A stretch of DNA of 61,455 nt, the filler included, from Stramenopiles sp. TOSAG23-3 (lineage: Eukaryota), in assembly GCA_900128585.1 (NCBI GenBank). It is 13 parts of 13 records of this genome, joined end to end, with 100 filler letters (N's around TTAATTAATTAA, not from the genome) between each part and the next. Parts side by side here need not be neighbours in the genome. Positions count along the whole stretch, not along the records: positions 4,745 to 9,388 come from LT643749.1; positions 9,489 to 14,129 come from LT643750.1; positions 14,230 to 18,869 come from LT643751.1; positions 18,970 to 23,606 come from LT643752.1; positions 23,707 to 28,343 come from LT643753.1; positions 28,444 to 33,079 come from LT643754.1; positions 33,180 to 37,812 come from LT643755.1; positions 37,913 to 42,545 come from LT643756.1; 5 more parts are not named here. One strand, given 5' to 3'. Position 1 is the first letter of the stretch. Each line of letters begins with the position of its first letter. The notes below the pieces were generated by a model. The model saw only the letters and a program-made list of their open reading frames with translations. It did no database searches and was not told where the DNA came from. Shown piece by piece: positions 8,284 through 59,096 of this stretch. The position numbers and the translations under genes are program-made.

Positions 8284-8334
8284 GAGGAAGCTAAACTTTA
8301 ATTACTTTAAATGACAGCCAATTTTTTGGTTTTA
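8284..8334 (-). repeat. Copy of the dispersed 3'-flank motif AAAAACAARAAAWTGGCTGTTATTT (family described in findings)
   Basis: Minus strand reads AAAACCAAAAAATTGGCTGTCATTTAAAGTAATTAAAGTTTAGCTTCCTCA, nearly identical to the copy at about 39574-39624. Confidence 0.85.
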
Positions 8335-8373
8335 AATAATTATTTAAGAAATATTTTGAATGTTTTTAAAATC

Positions 8374-9183
8374 TCAGTTGCCCCCACCAAGGACCACTGG
8401 GACTTCACAGTACGTCCGTAAGATAAAATCTCGGTGTTCCATGAGCCTTGGAGTTATGGCCGCTTTGACGACTGGGTTTTTCACTCCAAACATCACGTCC
8501 ATCATTTTCGTTAACTTTGTCCTTGGCATAAACGCTTCGTCGGGCGGCTGAATTGAGTAAGACATGGTTGCCATGTAAATGTCAACTGCGGTCAGGGAAT
8601 CCCCTACGAGGAATCTGCTTCCCTTCCTGTGCTGTTGTTCCAACCGGTCGCATATGAGCTTCAAGATAGCCGCCATTTTGTAAGGCGCCTCCTTGCTCGC
8701 TTCTTTTGAATACCCATACTTCATTGCGAGCTTGCTTTTTTGCTGGATTCTCATGTTCCAACAGTACCCGTCCTCTGCCAGTACCAAAGCACAAAGTCCG
8801 AACATGTCCTTTCGCAGGTGCATGTCGCCAGGCACTAATTTTGGCGAGTTCGGCGCCCCGATCCTCTCGCACAGCGCCAACTGCTCGATCCAACTGGACC
8901 TTGGTCTCTCGTCGTTGTGCCACATGACAGGCAGAGACGTCTGTGCCGTGAGCTCAAAGAGTCTCTTCTGGCGATCCTCGCCCGTCTTCCTGTCCTTTCC
9001 TATATTCACGTGCTTGACCCGAATGACAGGTATCCGCTTTGTGTAGCAAATGTTTTTCAAACACTCAGCGTACAGCGCAGGAAACCCTGGGCTCATGGTG
9101 ACGCGGGTCCCGGTTTTCAACTTTGCGGCATCCTCTAAGGAGATAAACTTGACTTCGGAGTTCTTTAAAAAGGCACGCGACAT
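8374..9183 (-). CDS. Glutathione S-transferase-like protein
   Basis: Thioredoxin-like N-domain (QTSLPVMWHNDE..SSW) and GST C-terminal motif FLVGDSLTAVDIY. Likely ATG at 9183 (MSRAFLK). Confidence 0.75.
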   Translation of the reverse strand: MSRAFLKNSEVKFISLEDAAKLKTGTRVTMSPGFPALYAECLKNICYTKRIPVIRVKHVNIGKDRKTGEDRQKRLFELTAQTSLPVMWHNDERPRSSWIEQLALCERIGAPNSPKLVPGDMHLRKDMFGLCALVLAEDGYCWNMRIQQKSKLAMKYGYSKEASKEAPYKMAAILKLICDRLEQQHRKGSRFLVGDSLTAVDIYMATMSYSIQPPDEAFMPRTKLTKMMDVMFGVKNPVVKAAITPRLMEHRDFILRTYCEVPVVLGGGN

Positions 9184-9488
9184 TCTGAAAACGTGGTCAA
9201 CGACTACTTCCAATCTGCGTGCTGCGTTTATTGCTTGTCGGTTTGGAAGGAAAAGACAAATAATAAGTAGTTTCATTTGTATTATGCTAATATTTTCTCT
9301 GTAGAACATGTTGAAGTTGTGCATTTTATTATGGTATGTATTATTGTCAATGGGGTGTTGGACTGATGGATGAGATGACGACGATGAANNNNNNNNNNNN
9401 NNNNNNNNNNNNNNNNNNNNNNNNNNNNNNNNTTAATTAATTAANNNNNNNNNNNNNNNNNNNNNNNNNNNNNNNNNNNNNNNNNNNN

Positions 9489-9561
9489 GAAGAAGAAGAA
9501 GAAGAAGAAGAAGAAGAAGAAGAAGAAGAAGAAGAAGAAGAAGAAGAAGAAGAAGAAGAAG
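9489..9561 (+). repeat. (GAA)n microsatellite at contig start
   Basis: Perfect GAA tract. Confidence 0.97.
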
Positions 9562-10034
9562 AGAAAAAACACAAGCAAAAATAATCCTAAAATAATAATA
9601 ATTGGTCATTTCTATTTTAGCTAATAAACACAGCATAGAGCCCACAACAGTGTTCAGGAGGAAATCGCCTCTTCGTTCTCTTCTTAATTATTTTCGCTTA
9701 TATTTTTTGTAAGATTTATTTTATTTTTTAAAAAAGATAATATAATATTATTGTTGAATTGTCGTCCGTTGTTTTGAGATTTGATCATCCACAACAATCA
9801 TCATATTAATATTAATATTTACCATTTCCTATTTTTTTTATTAGATATACGTAGTTGTCAACAAATATTTATTATTTCTGTATCATTTCTAGATGACTGA
9901 CAAAAACTAAATAGATTATTTATGGTATAGGAAAGGTTTACAGACCATTACAGCCCCTCAGAAAGAATTAAACTAAATTAGAAAAAACGGCGATTTTTTT
10001 TATATACAGTATATTATATGTATACAATATAAAT

Positions 10035-11306
10035 ATGGTGAGTCGTTTTGTTGAAAACCTTCTTTATGGGGAACGCTTCGCCCATTTAGAACAGTGGAAA
10101 TTCATAGATTTCAAAAATATGGGGGTAAATTTGCCGTCCTTTGTTTATTGCGAGGCATTTTTCGGTTTGCTTTTCGCTCTGTCCTGGTACCATGCGTTCT
10201 GCCTGCAAAGCAGTCAGGCGAAAAGGAGATACCAAATTTGTTTGTTCCTCGCTGCGTTGTTGGGGGGTGTTGGAAACGACGTCATCTTCACCTTCCTCCC
10301 TTTGGTGGATAATTTCTGGCATTCGCAAGGCACGGTAATGCTTTCGCCCCGTTTTCCACTTTACATTCTCTTTTGGTACGCAGGCTGGCTGTACATACCG
10401 TTTAGCATAGCGTCAAGTATGAGAATAGCAGCAGCCAGCCCGTTCGTCGAAGCTGCGATGGTCAGTCTTCTCAGCGCATGCTTTTACTTGCCCTGGGATT
10501 ACGTCGGTGCAAAGTTCGTTTGGTGGAGTTGGCATACCACCGATAATGCACTCGGGGAAAGGTGGCTCGGTGTGCCAAGTGCAAGTACGTTGTGGACGTT
10601 AGTGTTCGGGTACATGTGGGCATTCATTGTCCGAAAATGTTTGGGAGAGAAAAAATCCAACGAGGAACACGGGCTCTCAGTAGGAGTCTGCTTCCGCACA
10701 CTATGCGCCGTGTTCACCCTTTCCGTCCCGCTTATGATGGTAGGCATGAGCTGTTTGGGTGGGCTGTTAACGTTCCAGCTTCCTGCGCCACCCACTACAC
10801 TGAGCGTTTTGTTTACGACGGTATTGCTCCTCTCAACGTTTGTGCACTCACTGAAAACGGTGGCAGTGCCCAAAGTCGAAGGCCGACCGATCAACCCGGA
10901 CAATATTTGGCTTCTTCGACTTCTCGTTAGACTGCATTTTCTTTTTCTGTTCTGCGTGCTGATGGTGTTTGATCCCAGCAATCACATTTCGACGGGTGTT
11001 CATCAAGAGTACGGCCCGTGCGGTGTAAAAGCACTCGATATATCTGGCCTCTCCCGCTCATTGTACACTTGCCCAGAAGATTTAGGGCAGTCGTACGTTC
11101 AGCATTCTGTAGATTCGTGTGGTGTGAAGAGCAACAGAGAAGTAATTGAACCTTCCATCAATGGTAACACGACGCATTGGTACAGCATATGCGGTAAAGC
11201 GAAGGGTGATAACTGGGTGATCCATGCTTGCATCGTTTTGGGAGCCGCATTTACTCTTTTTGAGGTGACGGTTGTGGCTTTCCTAGGGGAAAAGGGAAGA
11301 ATATGA
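10035..11306 (+). CDS. Uncharacterised multi-pass membrane protein (conserved VDNFWHSQ family)
   Basis: 423-aa ORF with about 9 hydrophobic segments. Motifs VDNFWHSQGTVML..RFPLY, D..GAKFVWWSWH..D and HISTGVHQEYGPC. Confidence 0.75.
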   Translation: MVSRFVENLLYGERFAHLEQWKFIDFKNMGVNLPSFVYCEAFFGLLFALSWYHAFCLQSSQAKRRYQICLFLAALLGGVGNDVIFTFLPLVDNFWHSQGTVMLSPRFPLYILFWYAGWLYIPFSIASSMRIAAASPFVEAAMVSLLSACFYLPWDYVGAKFVWWSWHTTDNALGERWLGVPSASTLWTLVFGYMWAFIVRKCLGEKKSNEEHGLSVGVCFRTLCAVFTLSVPLMMVGMSCLGGLLTFQLPAPPTTLSVLFTTVLLLSTFVHSLKTVAVPKVEGRPINPDNIWLLRLLVRLHFLFLFCVLMVFDPSNHISTGVHQEYGPCGVKALDISGLSRSLYTCPEDLGQSYVQHSVDSCGVKSNREVIEPSINGNTTHWYSICGKAKGDNWVIHACIVLGAAFTLFEVTVVAFLGEKGRI

Positions 11307-11505
11307 TTTCATGGCTGCGCGCCTTCAACCCCAACCACAGTATCATGTTATTATGCCAGGTGTAATATATAGCTGTGGAACTTCATATATCAATTAAATT
11401 AACCTCTCGTAAGTATTTACGAGAGTAGGTATCATAATCAAAAAAAGAGGAACGAGAAGTACAAAGTATCTTATCTCTCGTGTTATGGTTTAAAAGTCTA
11501 CGGTT

Positions 11506-15550: not shown

Positions 15551-15638
15551 AATTGCGTTTGCCGTAGTATTTCGCGTAACAATTGTACAAGGAAGCACTA
15601 AAATACGCATGGTTTAAAAATTATTTACGGCCGGTAAA

Positions 15639-18024
15639 TTAAACTAAAGAGAGATGGCACCTAAAATCGTGCGTCTGCACTCCGATAATTACCGCCGTTA
15701 CAGACAGTGCAATCACCACGATGGAGATGACGGTCACTTCCGTCAAGACCTGCCAGTACCGATTCTCTGCGAGGGACGGCTTTTTGTGTGCAGCTTTCTT
15801 AAAGTGCAAGGGAATGCTGGTCACTCGCCGGTACCCTGCAGTGTTGTTCAAGTGCTCGTTCTCGAGCCGAACAAAACTCCAAATGGTCCGTCGCATAAGC
15901 TCGAGCCCCGGGGCAACGCTCCCCACCCACTCGAGGCGAATGACCGAAATAGGGTTGTTTACCGCCCCAACGCCAGGCAGTATGGTGGAGATCCAAAAGA
16001 AGCGCAGGAACAAATCCACCAAAGCGGCGAAGTAGTACAGCCATTGCCGGGAGTACATCCGGGTTTCTCGCAGCTGACAGCAGGAACGCTTCCCCTCGTC
16101 CCCGCCCTCGCTTTCGAATATGGACCAATCTTGAAACAAGTCCCAGTAGTACATGTACAAGGTAGTAACTACGATCATGACGAGCCAGACCTTGTCCAGA
16201 AGATCGTCAAACCCCTTGCTCGTGACGGCGTTAAAGATTCCAAACAACTGCACCACCATTGCCAGGGCGTACTTGAAGGCATTGGCAATGTTCCTGGACT
16301 TCCAGGCCCGGGACTCTTCCTCGTCCACGAACCGCCGGACCTGCTGACAAAAACGTATGAAATAGGGTGTCACCAACAGCAGCCGGGTGACGTTTTCGTA
16401 GAGAGAGCTTTCCAAACAGAAATTGTGCTCTTCAATGTGGGAGTGCGCCCAGCTCAGGTGCACGGAGTAGCACAGAAGGTACACCACGTCGACCAAGGGC
16501 TTCGTCATGCTCGTCAGCACGTCGCCCGCAAAGTTCATCATGAACGTGACGTTCCGGCAGCACGGCGTCACCGTGTGGAATATGATCACCCACGTCGACT
16601 TTCGCGGGCCGCAGCACGACCGCAGCGTGTGCCACAGAGCATATAGTATCAGGATCAGCGTCACTATCCCAGGGTGTTCCCAAAACCAACCGGTCAGCCC
16701 CAGGCTGTTCGACATCATTTTGAAGTGCAGCAAAAACAAGGCTAGAATGACAATCGTGTGCCGGGCCGCCATTTCAAAGATGGCCGAGCTCTCCTGGCTC
16801 ATCCGGGGGTCCAACTCGAGCATGTACAAGTAGTTGACTCTCCCAGCCTCCCACACGTACAAGCTCGCGCCCCAGCACCATAGCCAAAACACAATGTACA
16901 TGATCCCTCGGTACACCGGAAACTCGTTCTGGCGCCAGTGCCCAATCGCTTCCTCCCCGGTCATGTTCGAGTTCGGGGGCAGGAACTTTTTGTCTATCAT
17001 TGTCCCCCCCCCGCAGCGATATGTCCACTACAATGTCCCACGTGATCCAAATCAGCAGCACGGACACGACGCCGTACAAACAGCCTCGTGCTCCCGTGCG
17101 AGCGATCAGCTGCTCCTGGTTGTTCCGCTTGAGAAGCAAGTCGCCTTTGGCAAGGTCCATGTTTCCGTTGTGGAAAAAATCCGCGTACAGCCGTTCGTGC
17201 TTCTGGATCAGCACGTCTATTTCTTCGTGAGCCATGAACGTTTTGGAGGCAGAGACGACGCCCACCGAGGTCTTCATCAACGATTGCTCCGTCACTTTGT
17301 CGTGCTTCTTCAATATCTTGACCACGGCCGTGTAGTTCAGCACGCAAAAATTCAGCAAGTAGCTCGCTTTCTTGGACGACTCCCCGAAGGCCCGTCGGAG
17401 GGACTCGGCCGCGAGCAGCGCCGGGCTGTTGACATCTTCCAGGTCCAAGTCCATGTTCGCTTGGACGTCAAACGACCCCGACCGCCCCCTTGCCTCAGTC
17501 TGCTGCTTCAGCAGCCGGTATGCCTCCTCAACCTCCCCCACTAGCTTGCGGTAGAACTTTTCTGCCTTGTTGATCTCGTCCAGAAGTGCCCGGCGAAACA
17601 GGTTCTCCCCCCACCTACTCTCCACGCCGTCTTTCTCAATCTCAAAAAAGTGTTGCTCGACGGGGTCCTCGGTTCCTTCTTGAAACGTAAACTCCGCCGC
17701 GGACTTTTCGTAGCCAACACCATTGCTACCAGGAGAGCCGATAAGGGGTATTCGGCCAAACTTCGGGGTCCCGGTCGGGGAAGAGGCCAGAGAGCTCCGC
17801 GGCGTACTGCCTCGCGATCTCCCGTACCGCAAAAGGCTCAGCACGTTCGTCGACGGGGAGGCGGCCACACCGCCGAGGCTGCGGTAGGAGCCACTGTCCC
17901 CCATTAAATTTGGCGAAGGGTTAGCCGGATTGTACAACAACTTTTTTAGCCTTCGGTAGTCGATGTAATACTTGGACCATTTGTCTACAATGTTGGACGC
18001 AAGTTTTTCTTCGAAGCGTACCAT
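15639..18024 (-). CDS. XPR1: SPX-EXS phosphate exporter (XPR1/PHO1/SYG1 family), split by a +1 frameshift at the G9 run 17004-17012
   Basis: SPX motifs MVRFEEKL...WSKYYIDYRRLKK and LNYTAVVKILKKHDK. EXS motifs NFAGDVLTS, YYWDLFQDW, LRFFW and LELMRRTIWSFVRLENEH. Removing one G joins the two ORFs. Confidence 0.9.
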
Positions 18025-18311
18025 GGTGGCGACGCTTGAATACTCTTTGGCGTCGGGTCGAGGTCTACCTGACGACGGGGCAGAGTAGTAATTTATTTGT
18101 TGTTCTTCTTGTTCAAATTCAAGAGGTAGAATACTGTTCATACTCTGGCACACACACAACCATACACACAAAGAGAGAGAGAGACTCACAAAGAAACAGA
18201 CGATCAGTACACAAATTAAACGATCGTACATTTATTTTCTTCCCTTCTTCATGACATTATTTATATATATACTACCTATTATCGACGACGAATGAAGCAG
18301 CATTTTTAATT

Positions 18312-18343
18312 NNNNNNNNNNNNNNNNNNNNNNNNNNNNNNNN
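18312..18343. other. Internal scaffold gap (32 N, no linker)
   Basis: N run lacking the TTAATTAATTAA spacer. Confidence 0.95.
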
Positions 18344-23706: not shown

Positions 23707-23716
23707 AGAAAGAAAC

Positions 23717-23784
<68 letters not shown>
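23707..23784 (+). repeat. (AAAG/AAAC)n microsatellite
   Basis: Visible tandem tract at contig start. Confidence 0.93.
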
Positions 23785-23785
<1 letters not shown>

Positions 23786-24101
23786 TTAATTTATATTATT
23801 TTGATAGGTATAATATTTTATAAATAAGAATTTCTTTTTAGTTGTACTTCCTTCATTTTCTTGTTGTTTTTTTCAAATTGATTTTTGAAGGATTGGTATT
23901 CTAATAGAGTCTATTAAGTATAAATTATTTATAATCTGATTTGAATTTTAAAACAAGAAGATATTTTACTCGTGTTCATTATTGTAGCTTCTGGTAGTAC
24001 AGATTTTAATTAAATACATAGAAGCAACAAGGAAGATGAAGAAGAGAGAATGAAGAAGGCGTTTTTTTTGATATTTTTTTACCAAGGTATTATTATAACA
24101 C

Positions 24102-28208: not shown

Positions 28209-28343
28209 TCTCCTCTTCTTCTTCTTTTTTTTTTTTCTTCTTCTTCTTCTTCCTCTTCTTCTTTTTTCTTCTTTTTCTTCTTCTTCTTCTTCTTCTTCTT
28301 CTTCTTCTTCTTCTTCTTCTTCTTCTTCTTCTTCTTCTTCTTC
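28209..28343 (+). repeat. (TTC)n microsatellite at contig end
   Basis: Visible tract. Confidence 0.95.
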
Positions 28344-30966: not shown

Positions 30967-31304
30967 CAAAGGCAGGTGGGTGAGGTAATTTTTAAATTCA
31001 AAAAAACACAACACTCAGAAACATTATTGTTTTGGGGTGATGTGTTTGGGCCTTTGGGTGCAGGTTTTTAATTTGAAATCGTGAGATATTTAAAACAGTT
31101 AATTTTGTTTGCGCTGATTTGTCACACTCATATGTAAGAAACACTCATACACGTAAAATTAATCTGAGAAAAGTGTTAATTCTAAAAAGATAAAAACCAA
31201 TAAATGCATAGTAACGTGTTTAAGTTTTCTACATTAAGTACTCTAATTTTAATAATCATAACAGCCAGAGCATTTATTTTGTTTTAAATTTTGTGGTTCA
31301 ATCA

Positions 31305-35269: not shown

Positions 35270-35786
35270 GCGCAGCTGTGTGTTGTCACTTTTCAAAAAA
35301 CAAAACAAAGGTATGAACCACTACGGTACCAAAAGGAACAAAACACTGAACACATCAAATTTTAATATTCGATAACAAAAAATACATACAAACGGTATTA
35401 CATAGTCCTACTAATAATTATAAGTGTCTGTAGTATACGATCGTAGGTGTCACCACAAAAATCGGGAGAATATATTTTGTCCTCATCAAAAAATGTTGAT
35501 GATAATACATTGAATAGCATTGAAGAAGAAAAATAGGAATTTCATCCCAGATTTTCAAGGGAAAATAGTCATAATAATAATATAGAAATAGGCCACTGTC
35601 GTCAGGCGTCCCGAAGGGTCATATTTTGACAGGATATGTGTGTGCTTGAAGAATACAAAATTGGTGTTAAAATAATGTACTACCTGTACCGCGTACGTCG
35701 CACTTTACAATATCACAGGAGAATGTGTGACCGTCAACACACGGCACAATTCTCAATTTCCCTAAATAACAGCCATTATTTTGTTT

Positions 35787-37811
35787 TTAATTCTTTGAAT
35801 ACAACAATTTCGCATCGTTTAAAGTAACAACGAGTTTGTAATATTCCTCCAAAGCTGTGCAGAGGCGGCTTTCTCCACTATGTATTTCATTGCTTTCAGG
35901 GGCATCTGGATATTCTTGGAGAACTGCTGCCGACTCCGACAACACTTCGTCGATTAACGGTTGTGGTATCCACTGCTCGACTATAGACATATGGTCATCG
36001 CCTTCAAGTGCCGCTCTTAAAATATAAATTATTTGGGAAACCAGCTGAGCAGATTTAGTGCACGCTTCGTAGTACCTTCCGTATTTCAGGTACACCCGAA
36101 TAAGAGCTGATGGGTTTCCTTGAGAAACGGCGAAGCCAGAGGTGGCCAGATTAGTGAGAGCACCAGCAGCCCCAGCGGATTTGACAGAGCCGTATCGAAG
36201 GGATCCTTCACCCCCCATCATCGAGTCTACCAACCACGCCGGGAGCTCAAAGCGGCAATCCAGGGACAGCAACTCATCCGCTACCGACGCATGGAGTTCG
36301 TAATTATTTTCTAGACCATCAAAGCAACAAAGAAACTCTTTTAGGTCTTTCTCGGCGGTGAACGACACTAGCCCTGCGTTCGTGAAATATTCTCGGGCTT
36401 TGGCCCGGACAACTTTGTCCTTCCCCAAGTTGTATGCGTTTGCAACGGTCACAGCGGCTTCGTGCTGATCGCTGTCCGGGCCACTCAACAGCAACGCCAT
36501 TGTCTCGTGCGGGCGTGCGACTGAGGCATGGCTTCTTCGCAGCTTAGTCCTCGCTTGTTCCAGAACAAACTCTCGGGAGATTTGCTCAATGCCTACAATA
36601 TCTTCCGAGGCTACCTTGGCAATGCCCTTCCCTGTCTTTATTTTTGACTCGTCGTATGCACCATTTCCCATTTCTACCTCGGTCACTTCCTCGCGGCGCC
36701 GTTTTGCTCTAATTGCTTCTCCCCGTTCGTGATCAAAAATTTTCGCTTCGCTGTCCGGCAACAGTCGTAACGCGCTAACGGCAGCGGACAATGCGTTTGT
36801 TCTGGCTTCCCTCAGCGCCATGGGCCCGCCCGCATAAGATTCTTCGAGCAATCGCTGGGACAGTTTATACATAGCGCTGGCCGCTTTGTGATAGCTGCCA
36901 TGCCGAACGAAGAAGGCGTATAGGAAATGGTATATAGTGTTTTCACCTGTTCCAATAGAAGCGTGGGCCGCTCTGTCATTCAGAATATCGCGCACGCCAT
37001 CGATTCCACGCAACCCGTCAAGGCTCAACGTTTCCCAAGGCAACCGGCACAACCAGTCCAGTTGGTTCTTATCGTGGAGCTCTACGACAAGCCGTTGGAC
37101 GCAGTCCTTACTTTGCTCCGTGTCAGGGTTAGACAAGATGGCGACAAATGCTTCGTCGTAGCGCCCCAGAATTAAAGTTTGCTGAAAGATGCTTGACCAC
37201 AACGTGGGAACAATAGTCCGCAAAAACGACCCTTCTCCAGCGTTCGCGTCCCCAGTTCCGTGATCTCGAATGGATGCAATAGCCACTCTTGCACAGTGCA
37301 AAACACACAGCGGGTTGTTGAACCCGTCGAAGGTTTCCATGATGGCTAAAATATACTTAATACGTCTATCGCTGGGAGACAGAGGCGCCGCCCTCAGAAA
37401 CTGTTCCATCGCCTCGGGGAAAGAGCCGTCTCCGAGCAAAGACTCCCCCAGCATGTGGGTATGGCGGCGAGCACAACATACCTTCTCGCCATCATTCAAA
37501 TCCCCGAACCCGCATTCCGACATCAAAAGTTTGCTGTACCCTGCCAACCACTGTAACTGGCCATGGGACGATAAATGCTCGGCGACCGCATCGTAAGTAC
37601 TAGTTGGCCACATTAGCCACAGGTAGTCGCGATTTTCTAGATTTACTCCCATCTCAGCGCACCACAAATCTAGCAATGGTTTGCCAATGTCATCAGATAC
37701 GCTGATGACTGTGTCGTTTTGGGTCCTTCCAAGAGTGTACGTAGAAATGTCGTCGTTCAGGGCGACCGTTACCCTCGCCTTGGAGGCAGCAGATTCAGCG
37801 TCCCTAGCCAT
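35787..37811 (-). CDS. NUP160: Nucleoporin Nup160, C-terminal portion (5'-truncated)
   Basis: LWSSIFQQTL..GRYDEAFVAILSNPD....DCVQRLVVEL, YHFLYAF....SYHKAASAMY, LPAWLV and ALIRVYLKYGRY match Nup160 motifs. Confidence 0.85.
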   Translation of the reverse strand: MARDAESAASKARVTVALNDDISTYTLGRTQNDTVISVSDDIGKPLLDLWCAEMGVNLENRDYLWLMWPTSTYDAVAEHLSSHGQLQWLAGYSKLLMSECGFGDLNDGEKVCCARRHTHMLGESLLGDGSFPEAMEQFLRAAPLSPSDRRIKYILAIMETFDGFNNPLCVLHCARVAIASIRDHGTGDANAGEGSFLRTIVPTLWSSIFQQTLILGRYDEAFVAILSNPDTEQSKDCVQRLVVELHDKNQLDWLCRLPWETLSLDGLRGIDGVRDILNDRAAHASIGTGENTIYHFLYAFFVRHGSYHKAASAMYKLSQRLLEESYAGGPMALREARTNALSAAVSALRLLPDSEAKIFDHERGEAIRAKRRREEVTEVEMGNGAYDESKIKTGKGIAKVASEDIVGIEQISREFVLEQARTKLRRSHASVARPHETMALLLSGPDSDQHEAAVTVANAYNLGKDKVVRAKAREYFTNAGLVSFTAEKDLKEFLCCFDGLENNYELHASVADELLSLDCRFELPAWLVDSMMGGEGSLRYGSVKSAGAAGALTNLATSGFAVSQGNPSALIRVYLKYGRYYEACTKSAQLVSQIIYILRAALEGDDHMSIVEQWIPQPLIDEVLSESAAVLQEYPDAPESNEIHSGESRLCTALEEYYKLVVTLNDAKLLYSKN

Positions 37812-37913
37812 GNNNNNNNNNNNNNNNNNNNNNNNNNNNNNNNNNNNNNNNNNNNNTTAATTAATTAANNNNNNNNNNNNNNNNNNNNNNNNNNNNNNNN
37901 NNNNNNNNNNNNA

Positions 37914-39446
37914 GAAGATGGATCAGGCATGGAATTTTTTCACGGAGCCCTTCCGTCGGGAAAAAACGATAGAGCAAATGGGCCTTGCACGTTTGTAATG
38001 GTATCGGTGGCGGTTGGCCGCACTGCCGTCGTGCCGACGGTAGTCCCACCCGTCGGTAAAGTAGAGGAGGCGCCGGCGAAGGGCCAAGCCGTCGGGGCCT
38101 CGTCCATGTCGAACATGGACCCTTCCACGTTTCCGGCTGTGGACAAAAAGAGATATGACAGTGTTTACCATGAAACCCCGATGAACTTGGAGAAGGAAGG
38201 CCATGAGAGCAACTTTACCGACGGTAGCCAGTACGTTTGGTCATACTACCTAAAAGATCAAGACAAGGTGTTCCCCAAATATTTGCTTACCTTCGACTAC
38301 GAGGGCTCCGACATCACGGACGGCAAAGTTCAGCTGTGCGAAATGTGCGAGGCCGTCCCCGCAATACTCTACTGCCAAGCAGACGACGCCAAACTGTGCG
38401 AAAAATGCGACACAGACATGCACAGCGCAAACAAAGTCGTCGCCAGGCACAAAAGGGTGCCACTGAAGGATTTCAAGAAGAAGAAGAGGCGTCTGTCGTT
38501 GATGCAGCGTCGCATGGGGGACACTCTGCAAATTTTCAATTCAAAGTGCCCCCTGCACCCGAAGGTGGACGTCGAGTTTTACTGCAAGGCGTGCGAAATA
38601 CCTGTTTGCGTTCACTGCAAAATGGTCGGAAATCACTCTAGTGGTGAAATGGGAACGCACAAGCTTATTGGCATTGGAAGTGCGTGGCAGCAAGCGGTTG
38701 ATGTGGCGAACGAGCCAGACAAAATTTTGGACCAACGGAAGAAAGACATTGACAGCCATTTGGGGAGCTTGTCCAAGGCCCTCGAAGACGTCGACAAAAA
38801 TGCATACGAACAAGATCTGTTTGTGCGCAAGATGGCTCGCGAGGCCCTGACAAAGATTGCAGCGGAGGCTCAGAGAAAGCGCGATAACCTGCGCTCTGCA
38901 AAACTTGAGCTGTGCCGGCAGCACCAAGAAATTGTATGGACGGAGCACTTTCTAAACCTTCAGCGAGAGGCGCTTCTCCCAGTAGAATTTCTATCGACGT
39001 GGAAGCGTCACAAGCGCGTTCGAGACCAGCTTTACGCGTACAGGGACGAAACCCCCGTTGTTTTGTCAGAAATACACCCTGATATTACTGTAGCAACGAA
39101 AGAGTTACTTGTGCTAAGCAACGACAGCCCGGCACTTGGTGACATTACAGAAGCAGCCGCAGAGGCCAACGGCGAAAGTTTCACTTTCCCAGAAGACGAG
39201 GACGAATCGGGCTCCAGCAACCGATTGTCTATCGCCCCACTTACCAACCGGTTTGCGACTCTGACACGAGAGTTTGGTAACAGACGAACGTCAATATTAA
39301 AAAAACAAAACAATTTCGGTTCTGAAAACAGCAACCGAAGCGCAAATATCGTTGAGACTAACAAGAGCGGGACCGTCGGCAAAGCTAGCACGGTAATGGA
39401 CCAGCTGTGGATGCAGACGCTGTCGGCGAAGAAAACCACCACTTGA
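37914..39446 (+). CDS. Tandem B-box zinc-finger and coiled-coil protein (5'-truncated)
   Basis: B-box 1 is CEMCEAVPAILYCQADDAKLCEKCD..MH......RH. B-box 2 is CPLH....EFYCKACEIPVCVHC....H. The frame is open to the contig edge. Confidence 0.88.
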   Translation, partial: EDGSGMEFFHGALPSGKNDRANGPCTFVMVSVAVGRTAVVPTVVPPVGKVEEAPAKGQAVGASSMSNMDPSTFPAVDKKRYDSVYHETPMNLEKEGHESNFTDGSQYVWSYYLKDQDKVFPKYLLTFDYEGSDITDGKVQLCEMCEAVPAILYCQADDAKLCEKCDTDMHSANKVVARHKRVPLKDFKKKKRRLSLMQRRMGDTLQIFNSKCPLHPKVDVEFYCKACEIPVCVHCKMVGNHSSGEMGTHKLIGIGSAWQQAVDVANEPDKILDQRKKDIDSHLGSLSKALEDVDKNAYEQDLFVRKMAREALTKIAAEAQRKRDNLRSAKLELCRQHQEIVWTEHFLNLQREALLPVEFLSTWKRHKRVRDQLYAYRDETPVVLSEIHPDITVATKELLVLSNDSPALGDITEAAAEANGESFTFPEDEDESGSSNRLSIAPLTNRFATLTREFGNRRTSILKKQNNFGSENSNRSANIVETNKSGTVGKASTVMDQLWMQTLSAKKTTT

Positions 39447-39586
39447 GAGTACTTCGTAGTCGTTTAGTAAGCGAGGAGGATATGATGTTATAAAAACAAA
39501 ATTATGGCTGCAATAATAATAATAAAAGAAAAACAACGAAACAAAATTACAGAATCAAGTTAGGATTAGGGTATGAGGAAGCTAAA

Positions 39587-39712
39587 TTTAATTACTTAAA
39601 TAACAGCCAATTTTCTTGTTTTTATTAATGATCTTTCTATAAGTATGGACCATAGCTCCGTTTACTCGTCTTAAATTCAAGAAAATTGGCTGTTATTTCG
39701 AGTAAATTAAAA
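39587..39712. repeat. Inverted pair of the 3'-flank motif
   Basis: AAATAACAGCCAATTTTCTTG (39598-39618) and its exact reverse complement (39678-39698), with imperfect extension outward. Confidence 0.9.
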
Positions 39713-39831
39713 TGACTCGTCTTAAACACACTTTTTACCAGTAAATTTAGGTAAAAGCTCTTAATTTTCACAACGAAACAACTTTACGTGTTGTGCAATC
39801 TTTGGTCAGTCTTTCAGCGAGTGCACAGTCC

Positions 39832-41436
39832 TTAGTACAGGGGTCCACCTCGGTTTCCTGACCTTCCCGTGTTCACCATGTGGTTACCATCAATTCTGGC
39901 TGGAGCACCACTGAGTTGTACCGGCGGTGCGTTCAAATTGACGCGCCCGTTAATTACTAGCAGTGGGTTCGGCTTCTTCAGAACATCTGGGTTCACAGAT
40001 ATACCGTCCAAGTACTGCTTCAATATGTTCTGCAAATCTTCATTCTCTTTGCGCAGGCGGTCCCTCTCTCGTTCTACAAACAGTTTATCCAGGAGCGCTT
40101 TGTTGCTCTTTTTGAAGAAATTTTCTAAATAGTCCCACTCCTCGACGTTTCTTCCCTTCATGTACCCTTGGGAGTTGATCTCTGGGTCTACGTTTATCGG
40201 GTCGGCGTCTTCGTCAACTTTTCCCGCGCCAGCCATGAGAACCCGCAGCTCTTGGTTCTGCTGTTCCACCTCTTTTTGCAGGTCTTCGTCGTCGTCCTCG
40301 CCGTTCAACAAGGGTGTGGACTCGTAGAAGGGAAGAACCTTTTCTCGCTGGGTCTCGAGCTTTCGCGAAATCTCCGAGTGGTGAACAATATCTTCCGCAA
40401 GTTTAATCTTGTTATTGAGCTCTTCCTTGGTTTTATGTGCATTCTGAGTCAGCTCTAACAAGCGGCGCTGCTCGCCATCACGGAATTTGTTCATCCTCGC
40501 CTTCAACGACTGAAAATGGCGCGAGATGGCGTTCTTCTCTTCCCGCAAGGCCCTGTTCCGCTCCGAGCATTCTTTATTGTTGGTCGAGATTTTCGTTCTC
40601 CAGTGCTGCAGCGTAAGCTGCAGTCGCTCGATCTTCAAAATTTTGGTCTCGATGTCTTTGCTCAGATTCTGGTCCTGCGTGGTCAAGTACTTGAAGTCCT
40701 GGGTACGCTGATCCGTGTTTGTCAAATAGTGCAGGTGGGCCGCTTCAAAGTGGCGCTCTAGCTCTTCGATATTGCTCTCCAACGTGATTCTCAGCACGTT
40801 AATGTCCTCCAAGTTTCTGTTCCTAATTTCTTCTCTAAGAGTTTCGTGCTCAGTCTTTGCCTCCGACTCCCGCTCTCTCTCGTCGGCCTCGACGGCCGCC
40901 ATAATGTCCATGAGTTCCGTCTTTTCCCTATTGTGCTGGTTGATAATCTCTTCCCGTTCCGCGTTGAACTCGTCTTCCAAGGTTCTCAAGTCGTTCTCAA
41001 ACTCGTTTTCCAGGGCCAACAACCGGGCGTCTTGAAGGTCGATCAGGCCATCAATGTTCTGCAAGTGCGCCCTCAGAGCCATCTGGTACTGCTCCTCCGC
41101 CTCTTCCAAATCTCTATCAAGCATCTGAATGATGGCATCCTTCCTGTCCACGTCACGCTCGTGGTTTTGCGACAAAATTTCGATTTCCTTCCGGAGCGAC
41201 TCGACCTTTGCCAGCCGCATAATCTTCCTCCACTGGTTCTGGATCTTGAGCCTATTGACCTTTGTGAATCCTAACTCTCGCTCCATCATTGCTTTAATTC
41301 GCTTCTTCTGGTGCAGGGCTTCCTTTCTGCGCAGCTCCATCATTTGTTCACGCTCCAAACGGGCGGCCAACTCCGCCTCTTCTCCGGAGGGCTTTAGCTT
41401 GGCGCTACCCTTGACTTTCTTCCCAAGACGAACCAT
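39832..41436 (-). CDS. CCDC65: Dynein regulatory complex subunit 2 (DRC2/CCDC65)
   Basis: KIQNQWRKIMRLAKVESLRKEIEILSQNHERDVDRKDAIIQMLDRDLEEAEEQY, RKLETQREKVLPF and LKQYLDGISV...NPLLVIN signatures. Confidence 0.93.
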   Translation of the reverse strand: MVRLGKKVKGSAKLKPSGEEAELAARLEREQMMELRRKEALHQKKRIKAMMERELGFTKVNRLKIQNQWRKIMRLAKVESLRKEIEILSQNHERDVDRKDAIIQMLDRDLEEAEEQYQMALRAHLQNIDGLIDLQDARLLALENEFENDLRTLEDEFNAEREEIINQHNREKTELMDIMAAVEADERERESEAKTEHETLREEIRNRNLEDINVLRITLESNIEELERHFEAAHLHYLTNTDQRTQDFKYLTTQDQNLSKDIETKILKIERLQLTLQHWRTKISTNNKECSERNRALREEKNAISRHFQSLKARMNKFRDGEQRRLLELTQNAHKTKEELNNKIKLAEDIVHHSEISRKLETQREKVLPFYESTPLLNGEDDDEDLQKEVEQQNQELRVLMAGAGKVDEDADPINVDPEINSQGYMKGRNVEEWDYLENFFKKSNKALLDKLFVERERDRLRKENEDLQNILKQYLDGISVNPDVLKKPNPLLVINGRVNLNAPPVQLSGAPARIDGNHMVNTGRSGNRGGPLY

Positions 41437-42645
41437 TTTTAGTTACGTAAGTATGCAAACGGCACGAAGTTACAACGAAGAAGAAAAACAAACAAAACGA
41501 AGTTGAAGGGTCTCTCAAACTCTTTTATTTTCTCTTTGAGCTACGTTCAATCCTAACGCTTTCTTTCATTACATTTCACTCCGCCTTTTCTTCGCTTTGG
41601 TTCTTTTTTTTTATTTCTTTGGCCCCGCCATCCATCACCATGAAATGACTAACTACCGCGGTACTCACAACACGGATTGATTATTTATTATTTTATTTCT
41701 TCTTCTTCCTATTGCCTTGTATTACAGGTACTGTTCCCATAAAAAGACGTTTCACTAGAAATGTTTCTTATTTTAAGTAAATTAAGTATGAATATACATA
41801 ATGAATATTAAATGGAGTTTTAATATCTATTTAGTATAACAAATTGATACAAAATGGGATATATACAATATTACCCTTAATTATTGAAGAGACGCAACGG
41901 TTAAAAAACCCAAAAAACAACAAATCCTGTGGTATTTCTATGTTAATTATAGAATATATATTATTATACTTATTTATTATCTATATAAATAACACTACAG
42001 TGTTCTCCTCCTACGTATAAGAAAGAAGGACTCTACCTCTCTACGAGTACCTCGTAATACAATATATAGCTCCACGCCTCGTATGTAATATTAGAAGAAT
42101 ACGGTACAGGTAATAACAGGGACGGTAGTCAGCTATCTAGACTAAATAAGTGCACAAAAGAAAAGATCTAAAAGCTTCACTACTAATTATTTTAAAATAT
42201 ATACAGATAGTATTACATTATATAGGGATTATAAAGACTAAAATGGTCATTCTTACTGGTTCCCCATTGGTGGTTTCGTAGTCTCTAGTCTCTATGGAGA
42301 AACAGTTTAAGTATATAGAATAATAAAAAAGAGTTCAAGTAGTGTCACATTATGAATGAATGAATGAATGATGAAGAAGAAGAGATACTAGATACTACGA
42401 GTAATAATTATATTGAAGAATGAAGAAGAGAGGATTATTTTATTTTTTATTAGAGGATGATATAAAAATATTGCTCGCTTTTCTAATTTACTCTAATTTC
42501 TTCTGGGAGCTTCTAATGGTCCTTAAAACATTTATTGTAAACAAANNNNNNNNNNNNNNNNNNNNNNNNNNNNNNNNNNNNNNNNNNNNTTAATTAATTA
42601 ANNNNNNNNNNNNNNNNNNNNNNNNNNNNNNNNNNNNNNNNNNNN

Positions 42646-43476: not shown

Positions 43477-43483
43477 AGTTCGC

Positions 43484-53428: not shown

Positions 53429-54147
53429 AGGCCGCTCCCCCACTGCGCACGACATTTAGTCTTGAGGGGTGACACATTAGTGCTAGAGGCACAACACAAG
53501 AAGCGTGACTAGAGGCAGACAGACTTTAGATAACGACCTTTGTACATAACATTGTAAATAAATATATCTTCACCAACACCAAAAATAAAAACAAGAAAAT
53601 TGGCTGTTATATTTAAGTAATTAAAATTAATGTACTGCGAATTGAACTCTACTAAACATTCGAGGTTTACATTCCTTCATGTATTAAATACTGCACACCA
53701 AAAATATAACAGTGTAACAGTGTAAATTTAAGAGTAGTAACAACAAGGAGGCCAACACCGTATACTCATCGCTTTGTTATTATTTTCCTCGAGCTACATC
53801 TTTTTGTACACATTTAGCAGACGAATCAATGATGTAACTTTCATTTTAGGGATCAATCGCCGCCAGGATTCACCCATATTCGATCCACGAGATAGGCACC
53901 ATGTTGCTTCTAACTTCGTCATGTTACTACAGTAACACGTACACCTTCCGTGCGAAAGTGAAAATTAGACGGTGGGAGAGTCGTCAGTATGTTCCTCTCA
54001 TTTTATTTGTCTTATCTTATAAATTAGTAAAAAAACATATAATAGGTTATTCAATTTTAATTACTCGTACTTTAAATAACAGACAATTTTTTGTTTTTAA
54101 TAGGTTATTTTGATATATTGGAGCGTCATTAACTTTGGTTCTGTTTC

Positions 54148-55429
54148 CTAACCGGCAAGGTCGGTGGCTTTGGTTTTTTTAACCACCCCAGCCTTGCTTT
54201 CGCGCAACGATAACATCGCCTTTGCGCCAAAGATGATATCCCTCTTCTTTTTCGCCAACATGTATTTTTTCATCATGGCTAGCACGTCCATAATTCTTTT
54301 GTAAGAACGGCTGCTCAATTTTTTAAGTATCGTTCTAATTTGTTTCTTGTTTTTCATTAGACCCGTCAATTTTTTAAGATTGAATGCAATCTTATTGTGT
54401 TTTTTATTATCCTCCAAGCCAGCCTCTGCATCCAACAACCGGTCAAAAACCATCCTCATACCCTCCCAATCCTCCTCTCTCCAAAACTCGTCCTCATCCC
54501 CCGATGTGCCTGCCTGCGTCGTCGTCATCATCTCGGCATCCACCTCCGTCGAGCTCCGTCGGTCTGCCTGCGTCGTCATCTCCAGGCTACAACCCCGCGA
54601 CAATCGTCTAAACAAGATGCCAACTCCGCCGACTCGCTCTCAGCAGCGAGCTACCTGCGGAACTGTCATCAGAGCTAAGTCTCTCCAGGCTACAACCCTG
54701 CGACAACCCCGCGACAAAATCGTCGAACCCAGACGCCGACTCCGCCGACTCGCTCTCGCCTGACAAAGACGAAGAAAACGGCAGCGAGCTGCAACTGTCA
54801 TCAGAGCTAAGTCTCTCCTCTCTCTCTGACTCTGAAGCCTGCCTCGAAGTCGCGTACTCACTGACCCTCTTCGCCTGAACATGAATGGCTCTGATCTTCA
54901 CACAGTCGCCCATCAGTTCCGAAGTGTCCCTCCCCCTCCGGATCGGGACCTGGTGCACAATGCCGTACTCGTCGACGTACTCCACAACAGTGTGGCGGTC
55001 GACGTAGAACTTCTCAAAGACACCTCCCCTGAAGCCGTACGCCATGCCCATCTGCACACTCTTCACGCCCACCTGCCGATCACCGCATTTGACCCTCAGC
55101 GCGCATTCCCGCCCCTGGAGCCTCTCTCCCGGCTTTCTCCACTTCAGCCGTTGACGCATGAAGTGCTTGCCCTTCCATTGGCACGCTTGCAAGGTGTTGC
55201 GCTCTACAGGCCGATCAACGATCGCAGTGAACCCATTCGTCAGCGTCTTCCGTTGCCGGCGACCCAAGTTCAGGTACAGCGACTGGCCTTTGCCATGAAA
55301 CGGGCCCACATACGCATCCATGATCGTTGGATCACCACCCCAGTGCCGCACGTGCTTCGGCGCCAGCTGGTGGAAGCGAAGCGAAAGCAGGGCTGCGGCG
55401 CCGCTGTAAAGCGGCCCCGCCTCCGACAT
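54148..55429 (-). pseudogene. Orphan gene with internal tandem duplications and a frameshift (or an unrecognised intron)
   Basis: ORF 55429-54608 (MSEAGPLY...) overlaps ORF 54615-54148. The break falls within duplicated blocks at about 54509-54818. Confidence 0.45.
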
Positions 55430-56274
55430 CCTTCCTCGTCGTCGTAGAAGTAAGTGTGAAAGAAAAAGAAAAGTGCGAAAAGTAAAACTGTATGAATACG
55501 TCCTTGTTTTCGCTGGTACATATTTATAACAATTCCATTGAATATCTGAATGCATTTCTTTTCTTATTCCATGCATGTTGCTTTGCTCGAATGGTTTACC
55601 AAACGGGGAAACAAACATACTTCGGTGTGCCAAGTTGTCTATAAGGCTATGTAGTATTAAAAAGGACTTTGGAGTAATACTATACTACGGCGGTACGGTA
55701 GCCTTTGTGATTTTGGAAAAAGACCATCACCTTTGCTGTGTTTATATTCATAGCTGCTTAAATTAACAAGAGTCCTCCTAGCTGAAAAAAATGAAAGAAA
55801 GTTGATGTGCGTGAGTAAAGATAGTCATAGCATATAGACGACTATAAAAAAAAAAGAAGTGAAGAGAACTTTCTTTTTTTCCTTCTTTTTCTTCTTCATC
55901 ATCACAAAAGATATTTTTAGTAAATGAAAAATAACAGGTCAGAGCATTGGCCAGAGCCTTTGTAACTTTTATGAAAAATGCAGTTTTTTTGTTGTGCATG
56001 GTGGTGGAGGAGGTCATTTTTTTATCCTCCTGCTATTTCAATAGAAGAAGACTCTGACTTTTTTTTTGTTGGGATAATATTACTGTATGTACCATATCTT
56101 ACCGGTCCTCATATATGCCAGGTGCAGTTGTAATTAAAAAAACGAAGTAAAATAAAGAAAAGTTTCCAAACACTTCTTAGAAAAGTCCACAAAAAAACCA
56201 TTCATTACACTTACTTTACAAACTAGAAAACCAAACGCAACACACTCCCCACACGGAACACACACACACACAAC

Positions 56275-56732
56275 ATGTCAGCAAGTGCCACCGAGTCCGC
56301 GGATGCGCCACAAATCGAGTCTTCCCCGAAGTTTTCCCCTATACCGATACATAAGGTAACGGTTGCCTGCCCTGGCGGGACTTACGAGCTTTATCAGTTC
56401 CAACAGTTTGCAGACGTTGTTCCTCTAACACAACCGAAGGAAAGGTACATGGGGGACAGGCCGTTGTACAAAGACTTCAAGTACCACAGGACAGGGATGG
56501 CGCAGGCGTTGCTGCGTGTTCCGCATCTCGAGCGCGAATACTGGGGCGACAAATGGCTCAGCGCGCTACAGAACTACATGGACTACTGGATCGCGCACAC
56601 CCTCGAGTCCCATTTCAATGAATGCGTGGTTAGAGATGGGGGAAAAGGGGCCCCAACGCCCACTATGCCCAGTGACGACAAAAAAGAGCCGATGCTGGCA
56701 GCGCAGGAAAAGGCAAACAATGAAACAACCAT
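56275..56732 (+). CDS. Hypothetical protein (3'-truncated)
   Basis: ATG in an ACAACATG context after an AC-rich leader. The GC-rich frame stays open to the contig edge. Confidence 0.7.
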
Positions 56733-56833
56733 NNNNNNNNNNNNNNNNNNNNNNNNNNNNNNNNNNNNNNNNNNNNTTAATTAATTAANNNNNNNNNNNN
56801 NNNNNNNNNNNNNNNNNNNNNNNNNNNNNNNNT

Positions 56834-58813
56834 CCAGAAAAGGCCAAGTTTATTGGTGATTCAGGGAAATGGAAGGAGTGTGTCACGTACAATGCAGAGA
56901 ACTTTGGGTATTTGCCATTTTCCAAAGAAGAACGAAACCGACTCCCGGGGGGAAGCATGCCGTCTCCGGCAGACCAAAGCATGGGGGAGTTTCCGTTCAT
57001 CCAAGATCAACCGCCCAGGGATTCTTTCACGCGCGAAGCGGAGCAGCGGATGGCCGCCAGGATAGCGGCCGAGGCTACAAAAATGTCTCGTTTCAAAACG
57101 GACGCGGAGTATGAAGCCGAAGAGAGGGAGCAGAAGCGGCGCCGGAAAAGAGAGGACGATTGGAAGTGGCGGCAAAAGGCGCTGACGCGAGAGTTCAAAA
57201 TGAAGTCTCGTGACCCCGGTAAGGCATTTTTGGTAGGGGAGCGGGTGAAAACGAAATACCGACGTGCATCGGAGTGGGACCGGCCGCGAATGACCGAAAA
57301 GTTCCACCCAGCCCGTATTATACGGTTGGGAGCCGATGGGCAATCCGTTGATTTAAAGTATTTGGACAAGCGGCGCGAGGTTGAGCGCAGGGTCAAAAAG
57401 TCGGTGGTAGAAGCAGACATGATCGAATTTGCCCGAATGTCAATTGAAATCAACAAACGAAATTTTGACAAAAAGATGAAAGCGAAAGCAATCCAGGACG
57501 AGAAAGACAAGTTCGAAGCAGAGCTGATGCTGTTGAAGGAAGCGCAGCGAGCGAAGGGGGGCGATATAAATAAATTAGAGGAGGAGGCCCGCGCCCAGCT
57601 GGAGCGCGAGGAGAGGGCGAAAAAGGAAATGGAGAGGCAAAAACAATTAGAAGTAGAAGAGGAAGAAATGCGGTTGCACGAAGGGCTGGACTCAATTGCA
57701 ACGGAATGGGTAGAACCCATGTCATTGCGCGGAGAAAAGAAGCGTTTGAAAAAGTTTATGGTTATAAAGAAGCCCGGATTTGATACGCGTGCCTGTGGCC
57801 AGGTGAACGCAGGGATTGATACCCTGACCATGCGTAGGGATCACACGGACCTTCGGGAAAAAGCCCGCAAGCGCCGTGTCGTAAAGAAGGAAAAGTCCAT
57901 GAGTGAAATCATTGCGGCAGAGCAAGCGGCTGCAGCGGCACAGGAGAAAGCTGCTTTGGCCAAGGTAGGAGAAAATCAGAAAGCGCGCGTTGTGGCCGGG
58001 GGAAAGAAAAACGAATTGATCCGCCGCCAATTCGAAGAGGAACAGCGGAAACAGAGAGCGATATTGAAAGGCTTGATTGATGGGGTGACGCAAGCAGAGG
58101 ACAACGTGGTGGAGTGCATGCTGAAGCACGAGAGTAACGTTTTGTCCGTTAAAGACGAGATGGAGAAGGCGGTTGATCGACACGCCCGCGCGGCCCTTCA
58201 AACGGAACAGATTCATGCGTTTGACGACTTGACGAAGTCCATTAACGAGGGGCGCAACATCAACTTGGATTTAATCGAGGCCGTTGCAGCATGGAGGGAG
58301 TCCAAAGTCGCTTTAGCTTCACACCGCGGAGAAAAATTACCCGAGACGGTTGAGTACGACAAGGATGAAGACGAGGAGTGCGAAGAGCTGGGTCCGCTCC
58401 GTTCACCAAGCGCCCCCCCATTTATCTGGAACGGTAACAATATTCTGTTTAAAATTATCAACGACTTTGATTTTCTTGACAATTGCCATCAATTGAAAGA
58501 ATGGTACGGCCCGGATTTTCCCCTGCTCACCAACCCGTTTATGCTGGCCGTCCCCGTATGGGAACGGGCACCAACGCCAAGAAAAGCGACGCAGACCGTC
58601 TTGGTAAATGGTGTGGGAGTCGAACGCATTATTCCGCGGCTTCGCGAGCGCAGTGAGCGGCAAGCCAAAGCGATGAAGGCAAAAAAACTTCAAGTCGCAA
58701 AGAGCGCTTGGTGGTGGCCCGGAAAAGGTATCAAACCGTCCGAGTATGAGCGTGTTCGCAGAGGAGAAAAGGAGATATTCGACGAACGGCGAAGAGAGAA
58801 GATTCGATGGTAA
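56834..58813 (+). CDS. Coiled-coil protein with Tudor/Agenet-like domain (5'-truncated)
   Basis: Frame is open from the edge. FLVGERVKTKY...FHPARIIRL...SVDLKYLD is Tudor-like, and a PFIWNGNNILFKIINDFDFL block follows. Confidence 0.75.
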   Translation, partial: PEKAKFIGDSGKWKECVTYNAENFGYLPFSKEERNRLPGGSMPSPADQSMGEFPFIQDQPPRDSFTREAEQRMAARIAAEATKMSRFKTDAEYEAEEREQKRRRKREDDWKWRQKALTREFKMKSRDPGKAFLVGERVKTKYRRASEWDRPRMTEKFHPARIIRLGADGQSVDLKYLDKRREVERRVKKSVVEADMIEFARMSIEINKRNFDKKMKAKAIQDEKDKFEAELMLLKEAQRAKGGDINKLEEEARAQLEREERAKKEMERQKQLEVEEEEMRLHEGLDSIATEWVEPMSLRGEKKRLKKFMVIKKPGFDTRACGQVNAGIDTLTMRRDHTDLREKARKRRVVKKEKSMSEIIAAEQAAAAAQEKAALAKVGENQKARVVAGGKKNELIRRQFEEEQRKQRAILKGLIDGVTQAEDNVVECMLKHESNVLSVKDEMEKAVDRHARAALQTEQIHAFDDLTKSINEGRNINLDLIEAVAAWRESKVALASHRGEKLPETVEYDKDEDEECEELGPLRSPSAPPFIWNGNNILFKIINDFDFLDNCHQLKEWYGPDFPLLTNPFMLAVPVWERAPTPRKATQTVLVNGVGVERIIPRLRERSERQAKAMKAKKLQVAKSAWWWPGKGIKPSEYERVRRGEKEIFDERRREKIRW

Positions 58814-59096
58814 ATTACGATGGAGGGAAAACGCGGGCATTATAAAAACAGGGCGCACTCTTTAAAAAAACAGCGTAATATGCCACAGAGCGATAAGATC
58901 TTAAAAGCAAAAAATTGGCGCTGTTATTTAGTCTTAAAGCATATTTATATAAAAGAAATGAGAGTCTTAAAACATACTATCATACTACTATATAAATTTT
59001 GTGTTTTTTTAAAAGAATTAATGAACGTAATATGGTGTTTTAACGTTTGTCTCAAGAATTACTCCCTACGCTCGAAGTTTACCTCCAATGAACCCG

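Follow-up and report, generated by a model that had tools for sequence, protein, structure and literature searches.

A motif behind genes of Stramenopiles sp. TOSAG23-3 is very probably the 3′ terminus of a CRE-like non-LTR retrotransposon

Among retrotransposons that lack long terminal repeats (non-LTR retrotransposons), members of the CRE group (CRE1/2, SLACS, CZAR, Cnl1, MoTeR and FoTeR) have one long frame, in which a reverse transcriptase (RT) is followed by a CCHC zinc knuckle, H[N/D], E and a C-terminal restriction-like endonuclease (RLE), and their truncated copies outnumber the full-length ones. Insertion of CRE elements into one multicopy target sequence is usual, not universal. RLE clades in general have usual target specificities (PMC4640811, in its available part). 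In the compact genome of Entamoeba histolytica, EhLINE1 and EhSINE1, a long and a short interspersed nuclear element (LINE and SINE), are intergenic, are not sequence-targeted and have target-site duplications, and their T-rich 3′ tail is proposed to pair with the A-rich bottom strand (available part of PMC1635306); the elements also cluster (PMC2657916, in part). SIDER1/2 of Leishmania are short retroposon remnants, ~1,900 copies of which lie nearly all in 3′ untranslated regions (UTRs; excerpts of PMC2323293), and Dictyostelium TRE and yeast Ty, which target tRNA genes, are mobile elements restricted to a 'safe' niche in gene-dense genomes (excerpts of PMC5006619). Here we describe a retrotransposon family of the marine eukaryote Stramenopiles sp. 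TOSAG23-3 that resembles each of these systems in part, and whose 3′ terminus is very probably a motif that recurs behind genes in a 61,455-nt stretch (the window) of assembly GCA_900128585.1. It is a new family of an already known kind of element.

The window joins 13 unrelated contigs of ~4.6 kb each, with N spacers between them, from an assembly of 28.4 Mb in 7,088 contigs. The sequencing runs containing this DNA are marine; the genes are long frames, intron-free for the most part, and the spacers are AT-rich. The original prediction had reported nine copies of a motif, read on the mRNA strand just downstream of stop codons, as a candidate 3′-end signal or 3′-targeted element. All nine copies were recovered where and on the strands reported, on six separate contigs. 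A 17-mer of the motif has eight matches in the window at three or fewer mismatches, compared with 1.0 expected and with none of 100 shuffles reaching eight; six of the eight are copies of the original prediction, and two are three-mismatch noise. Because nhmmer fused or overlooked short copies, we used instead a weight matrix that allows gaps, for which 132 copies on other contigs served as the training set. The matrix recovers nine of nine copies, seven of them at 31-41 bits and those at 31262 and 39505 at 12.7 and 11.8 bits. The reversed-sequence control also scores at ~12 bits (six hits at 12 bits or more, none at 16 bits or more), and the last two copies are therefore plausible but not secure.

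The motif is multicopy, and it continues into a longer element. A 24-mer of it has 123 exact matches in the genome and its 15-mer core has 2,001 (1,004 forward and 997 reverse; none in the reversed control), which scales to an estimated ~3,500 genome copies, given 56 matrix hits per 32 exact 15-mers in the held-out contigs described below. The flanks of the copies diverge at once past a T-run on one side, and on the other the likeness continues for variable lengths. Walking 5′-ward from the 3′ end, with first-look candidate counts of 546, 298, 32, 10, 8 and 5, one enters a reading frame on the strand opposite to that quoted in the original prediction, which is the element's own sense strand. 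Read in this direction, the frame has first a tail rich in Ser, Thr and Pro and then endonuclease-like motifs, followed by a CCHC knuckle, a region resembling a thumb and the RT motifs RPIAIG, DAKNAFN, QQGDPIG and FADD; the series RPIAIG...QQGDPIG...FADD is one that we take to be typical of CRE. At least three 3′ UTR types (A, B and C) have a common terminus, and a sister type, D, has an upstream block in common with B and ends in a different T-rich tail. The element end is a T-run, not poly(A), and shuffles fold as well as the 3′ UTR does (z = +0.81). The median held-out copy is 47 nt long, and most (38 of 49) are shorter than 100 nt. The ~2,000-fold depth over a B-type copy in X16 is a sum over contigs and is not used as copy number.

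A metagenome search with the RT alignment gave four loci, including L205, a public contig of 5,914 nt. Its unbroken, 5′-open frame of 1,748 codons holds RT, zinc knuckle and RLE motifs, stops at 5249, and is followed by a 113-nt 3′ UTR ending in the motif; the order of parts is the same as that from the overlapping-contig walk. L205 5274-5362 and window 39534-39622 are 94.4% identical over 89 nt, and L205 is up to 98% identical to the genome's own fragments (short contigs C4698 and C6971). The L205 element end faces a host gene stop ~55 nt away, with an inverted stub between them. The nearest Atlas clusters of the element's RT are RVT_1 (score 0.96), and PF00078 is found on 27 of 30 homologues of its RT region.

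C-terminal to the RT, the residues C-x9-C-x8-H-x3-C-x8-PHN, E, [A/P]D, [W/F]DV and K do not vary among four relatives (35-81% identity), and at the level of motifs they predict a CCHC knuckle and a PD-(D/E)xK-like endonuclease, as in RLE-type (R2 superfamily) elements. The order of parts matches the SLACS/CRE/MoTeR scheme in the available part of PMC12857005. The same part gives the restriction-enzyme-like (REL) spacing as C-x1-3-C-x7-8-H-x3-4-C-x9-10-RH[D/N]...[R/K]PD-x12-14-[D/E], whereas the first knuckle loop of the present element has 9 residues instead of 1-3, PHN stands in place of RHD/N, and ~57 residues, instead of 12-14, lie between the two endonuclease acidic residues. Also unlike the CRE group, the element has an extra Ser/Thr/Pro-rich C-terminal stretch of ~180 residues after the endonuclease, and no multicopy target (spliced leader, telomere) was seen, the copies being at thousands of dispersed sites behind protein-coding genes. 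Among the 30 homologues, the CRE knuckle pattern is fitted in a loose version by 12 and in a strict version by two, and in a tree of unnamed homologues, without named CRE, R2, R4 and NeSL sequences, L205 is sister to P0035 (100/99). The label CRE-like would thus be one of motif order and not of a place on a reference tree. In sum, the motif is, with high confidence, the constant 3′ terminus of an autonomous, CRE-like non-LTR retrotransposon with an RLE, and the repeated unit is the surviving 3′ tip of a LINE of more than 5.3 kb.

Two further relatives were met. The database protein P0005 combines an unrelated host frame with a C-terminus that is a captured piece of the element's zinc-knuckle region, and at L207:6001-6900 a metagenome contig, probably an assembly chimera, joins a relative of the element's RT to bacterial-looking DNA of high GC. 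Eight other genomic RT frames, from a Pfam RVT_1 search and presumably Gypsy-like and DIRS-like by their motifs, were rejected as the source, the motif being the own terminus of none of the eight. A telomerase or Penelope-like reading, raised by telomere-like letters in the B-type UTR and by inverted pieces, gave way to the RT and RLE motifs found instead. As for the genome's other retroelements, L099, L100 and L101 (C2763, C2845 and C4346) have long unbroken pol frames of 1,309-1,549 codons, presumably Gypsy-like, and L102-L105 and L096 have overlapping RT and recombinase-like frames, presumably DIRS-like; a few hundred bases separate the end of the L100 element from the start of a host gene downstream of it.

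Position relative to genes was tested on six large contigs outside the training set (392 kb, about two-thirds coding), with genes from a dicodon model and element frames masked; these contigs were chosen by size, some from hit lists, and not by gene context. Copies occupy 20 of 45 convergent intervals (45 copies in 25 kb), 6 of 45 tandem intervals (10 copies in 42 kb) and 0 of 43 divergent intervals (54 kb), with Fisher p = 1.3e-7 for convergent versus divergent occupancy, and coding DNA also holds none. The preference for 3′ ends seen in the window is strongly borne out by these contigs. A copy lies within 400 nt of the coding end on the 3′ side of 34 of 126 genes and on the 5′ side of 0 of 126; by the same measure, the figures are 102 of 243 and 2 of 167 in all DNA analysed for position and orientation (812 kb of the 28.4 Mb, that is, the 392 kb and search-centred loci). 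The D-type tails are found in eight convergent, one tandem and no divergent intervals. In the window itself, all nine copies are in convergent 3′-3′ intervals, with none in coding DNA or upstream of any gene, as originally described; of seven convergent intervals called there, five have a strong copy, one has the weak 31262 copy only, and the rest are empty. AT content is equal in divergent and convergent DNA (0.66 vs 0.65) and TTA/TAA density is similar, so base composition does not explain the position bias. By comparison, no gene-3′-end or convergent bias is reported for EhLINE1/EhSINE1 in the available parts of PMC1635306, PMC3118788 and PMC2657916, and the present copies, likened to those elements by features and not by sequence, are mostly stubs of less than 100 nt and not SINE-sized units.

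Simple repeats are the mirror image of the LINE stubs, at 3.6% of the intergenic bases in divergent intervals and 0.0% in convergent ones; in the window, long GAA/GAAA tracts lie upstream of genes at 6150-6280, 9489-9565, 23707-23790, 28250-28343 and 60770-61000.

The strand tendency, described at first as motif copies sense to the nearest stop, is real but local. Where the first copy lies no more than 100 nt from a stop, it takes that orientation in 33 of 44 genes (p = 0.001; 29 of 39 once the window is set aside and 7 of 11 in the held-out contigs alone), a bias that unfinished masking of 5′ ends could raise slightly, and it is alike across near-perfect to degenerate copies (12/16, 15/19 and 6/9; small numbers). 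When the first copy is more than 100 nt from the stop, the count is 12 of 38. For convergent copies overall, the raw count of 83 of 137 (p = 0.016) becomes 78 of 137, and then 67 of 117, once element bodies are removed, so that the element's 3′ end points to the nearer stop in 67 of 117 cases (p = 0.14) and the general form of the claim is lost; of 19 copies in tandem intervals, only 7 lie antisense to the gene upstream. The stop-to-core distance of the window copies varies from about 12 to 240 nt, and the spacing is therefore not fixed. Over these 812 kb, a weight-matrix scan of the kind that the original prediction had proposed returns a positional bias, and a strand bias near stops, without fixed spacing. 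Of the small element with 3′-end and strand preference that it had considered, the element and the 3′ bias stand, the strand bias is confined to ~100 nt from the stop, and the unit is not an element in its own right.

Target-site duplications, a mark that had been suggested as a check, are present. A first search in a fixed 120-nt window had a high background and was repeated at aligned junctions for 236 copies, 17 of the 253 scored copies being excluded (body beyond the alignment limit or touching N). Direct repeats of at least 10 bp are found at the junctions of 27 of the 236 (11.4%), compared with 2.3% in swapped-flank controls. The duplications are 8-15 bp long, and three 12-bp cases are in the window (the 39687, 53601 and 54080 copies). 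Of 52 sites with a duplication of at least 8 bp, 28 are inside older copies, in either orientation; the 24 non-nested sites have AT-richness as their only common feature and no strict target sequence, and 18 of these 24 duplications start with T, which is partly built into the method. The number of copies per convergent interval is overdispersed (0-5, p = 5e-5). At L016:1930-2290, the 5′ part is inverted relative to its own 3′ 440 nt, an arrangement resembling the twin-priming inversions of L1.

The copies of the window illustrate this range. Behind the GST-like gene, a 5′-truncated LINE copy with an A-type 3′ UTR (8131-8334, + strand, 37.0 bits; ~204 nt by anchored alignment) has its 3′ end 40 nt from the stop, is antisense to the gene and has 546 candidate relatives genome-wide. 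A weak, degenerate stub behind the ankyrin gene (31254-31281, +, 12.7 bits, within the reversed-control range) aligns to the terminus. The last bases of the stub at 35762-35789 (+, 33.1 bits) overlap the TAA stop of the NUP160-like gene (35787-35789). Behind the B-box gene is a second weak, degenerate stub (39489-39516, −, 11.8 bits, also within the control range), followed by a 5′-truncated copy of ~90 nt (39534-39623, +, 41.4 bits) whose B-type 3′ UTR is the same as that of the intact L205 element, and by a 39-nt stub (39676-39714, −) between 12-bp direct repeats at 39664-39675 and 39715-39726, read as a target-site duplication. Similar 12-bp repeats bound a 107-nt truncated copy with a C-type 3′ UTR (53588-53694, −, 36.4 bits; repeats at 53576-53587 and 53695-53706) and a 46-nt stub (54052-54097, +, 34.5 bits; repeats at 54040-54051 and 54098-54109). 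The stub at 58904-58931 (−, 31.1 bits), with a 2-nt insertion in its core, is adjoined by a tail of the D-type sister subfamily of the same LINE family, with a different but T-rich end (58955-59010, +, pattern hit at 58960; also 58930-58943), which the original prediction had missed. Its gene labels were recovered by Pfam for GST, ankyrin, NUP160, B-box, NYD-SP28 (DRC) and vWA, and the frames called 'Tudor-like' and 'orphan' have no Pfam match.

Other features of this DNA are unrelated to the LINE. The 35762 stub abuts the end (35575-35763) of a separate foldback repeat of ~600 nt, resembling a miniature inverted-repeat transposable element, with long terminal inverted repeats and 72% self-complementarity; a larger copy is at G000 C5997:4396-4990, and several are elsewhere, in tandem, convergent and one divergent interval. 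A near-perfect palindromic repeat of 70 nt is found at G000 C5995:47347-47414 and C5999:2406-2482, in one divergent and one tandem interval. On the minus strand at 15642-18231, SPX and EXS domains lie in two adjacent frames overlapping by ~250 nt, for which an intron, a frameshift or a split XPR1-like gene are candidate readings.

Several results count against the reading of the motif as the tip of a CRE-like LINE gathered behind genes. A duplication of at least 8 bp is absent from 184 of the 236 copies, and chance would account for half of the 8-bp cases. No empty allele was found at the one locus searched (37913-42545, four runs), and contigs break at repeats; the one 48-nt joint at this locus was rejected, with foreign letters between its sides. 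A Pfam scan of the element's own RT gave no RVT_1 match and a PDB sequence search with the element proteins no match, and two AlphaFold models were too poor (mean predicted local distance difference test scores of 37 and 52), with no Foldseek match at E ≤0.001. The zinc knuckle and endonuclease depart from the published CRE/SLACS pattern in three spacings, order and residues being in agreement, and the 5′ end of the element was not found, L205 being open there. Finally, the convergent excess over a per-gene-end rate has a likelihood-ratio p of 0.10 (p = 0.005 with the tandem rate fixed).

These points have to be set beside the alternatives. A host polyadenylation or termination signal, or an RNA-binding-protein site, as first proposed, would agree with copies lying only behind genes and with the partial strand bias close to stops, and is nevertheless very improbable in either form: 89 of 135 gene 3′ ends are in intervals without a copy, the TGGCTG core hexamer is in just 2 of 99 empty 3′ flanks, and the distance to the faced stop runs from 8 to 656 nt (5th-95th percentile) with no fixed spacing. 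Moreover, copies form nested clusters in both orientations with the overdispersed counts given above, target-site duplications are present, and the motif runs on into a retrotransposon UTR and frame. An Sm-site or small-RNA reading was dropped as well, an Rfam scan of the window giving 0 families. Co-option of the stubs as 3′ UTR regulatory elements, acting on mRNA stability or 3′-end formation by analogy with SIDER2 in Leishmania, seems improbable. It would suit a family that has copies in or beside the 3′ UTRs of roughly one gene in three or four (34/126) and one orientation in 33 of 44 first copies near the stop, and RNA-library contigs, although neither transcript ends nor transcription can be read from them, cross the 39505 copy and part of the 39687 copy, which lie behind the B-box and DRC genes. 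However, copy lengths vary freely, copies are piled into one another in both orientations, and an intact autonomous frame exists, so that persistence of the family needs no host function. SIDERs, by contrast, are extinct, destabilise mRNA and are known by a 79-bp signature, the present copies by their 3′ tip.

The more serious question is whether the confinement to gene 3′ flanks was set at insertion, which we consider somewhat the likelier origin, or afterwards. The same element may insert anywhere AT-rich, with purifying selection in a very large population clearing promoters and coding DNA; a gene-dense genome, the lack of a strict target sequence at the 24 non-nested sites and a convergent occupancy compatible with a single per-end rate (the p of 0.10 above) are all consistent with this, and PMC1635306, in its available part, raises the same possibility for EhLINE1/SINE1. 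We regard selection as rather unlikely to be the whole cause, since 54 kb of divergent DNA holds no copy though the stubs are of ~47 nt, and divergent intervals do hold simple repeats and at least two other repeat fragments. In addition, near-perfect and degenerate copies are equally biased in orientation, and so there is no sign of gradual weeding. An insertion preference is favoured because the stubs are tiny and the divergent spacers, long and tolerant of other repeats, are yet without copies.

Insertion most likely proceeds by target-primed reverse transcription. The element protein would nick AT-rich DNA, and reverse transcription would be primed at the U-rich RNA end, whose U-run would pair with an A-rich primer strand in the way proposed for EhLINE1. 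Synthesis would mostly abort after 30-100 nt, leaving stubs that hold little beyond the motif, and a second-strand nick ~12 bp away would give the target-site duplication. The preferred sites would be those at which RNA polymerase II terminates and the DNA is open or stressed, above all at converging gene pairs, and confinement would be amplified by re-insertion into AT-rich older copies. A bolder and less probable proposal, offered tentatively, is active homing, in which an RLE-type LINE would seek out RNA polymerase II termination zones and use its own U-rich tail for priming. Nicking of the displaced non-template strand behind genes would then account for the lack of copies in front of genes, for their greater number at convergent pairs and for the 3:1 antisense excess near stops. 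That 3:1 bias may mean that the primer strand is preferentially the non-template strand of the gene, or that copies in element sense are purged from 3′ UTRs. The pairing model predicts primer ends like ...TAA-3′, which would fit copies starting at a TAA stop (35770; L033).

A literature search, with Repbase and most subscription papers outside it, turned up neither this family nor a LINE targeted to the 3′ ends of genes or to convergent intervals. Unlike Dictyostelium TRE and yeast Ty, the present family occupies the 3′ flanks of protein-coding genes, with no RNA gene detected by Rfam in the window. For this genome, the finding identifies a repeat family of ~3,500 copies that breaks the assembly, and keeps a false lineage-specific 3′-end signal out of its annotation. 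For mobile elements, it shows with unusual clarity a confinement to the 3′ flanks of genes in a compact genome, and the intact frame makes the question of targeting versus selection directly testable. If the proposal is true, a LINE that homes to the ends of transcription would represent a safe-harbour strategy of a new type, based on neither a multicopy sequence nor tRNA genes, and would be of interest for retrotransposon biology and for gene-insertion tools.

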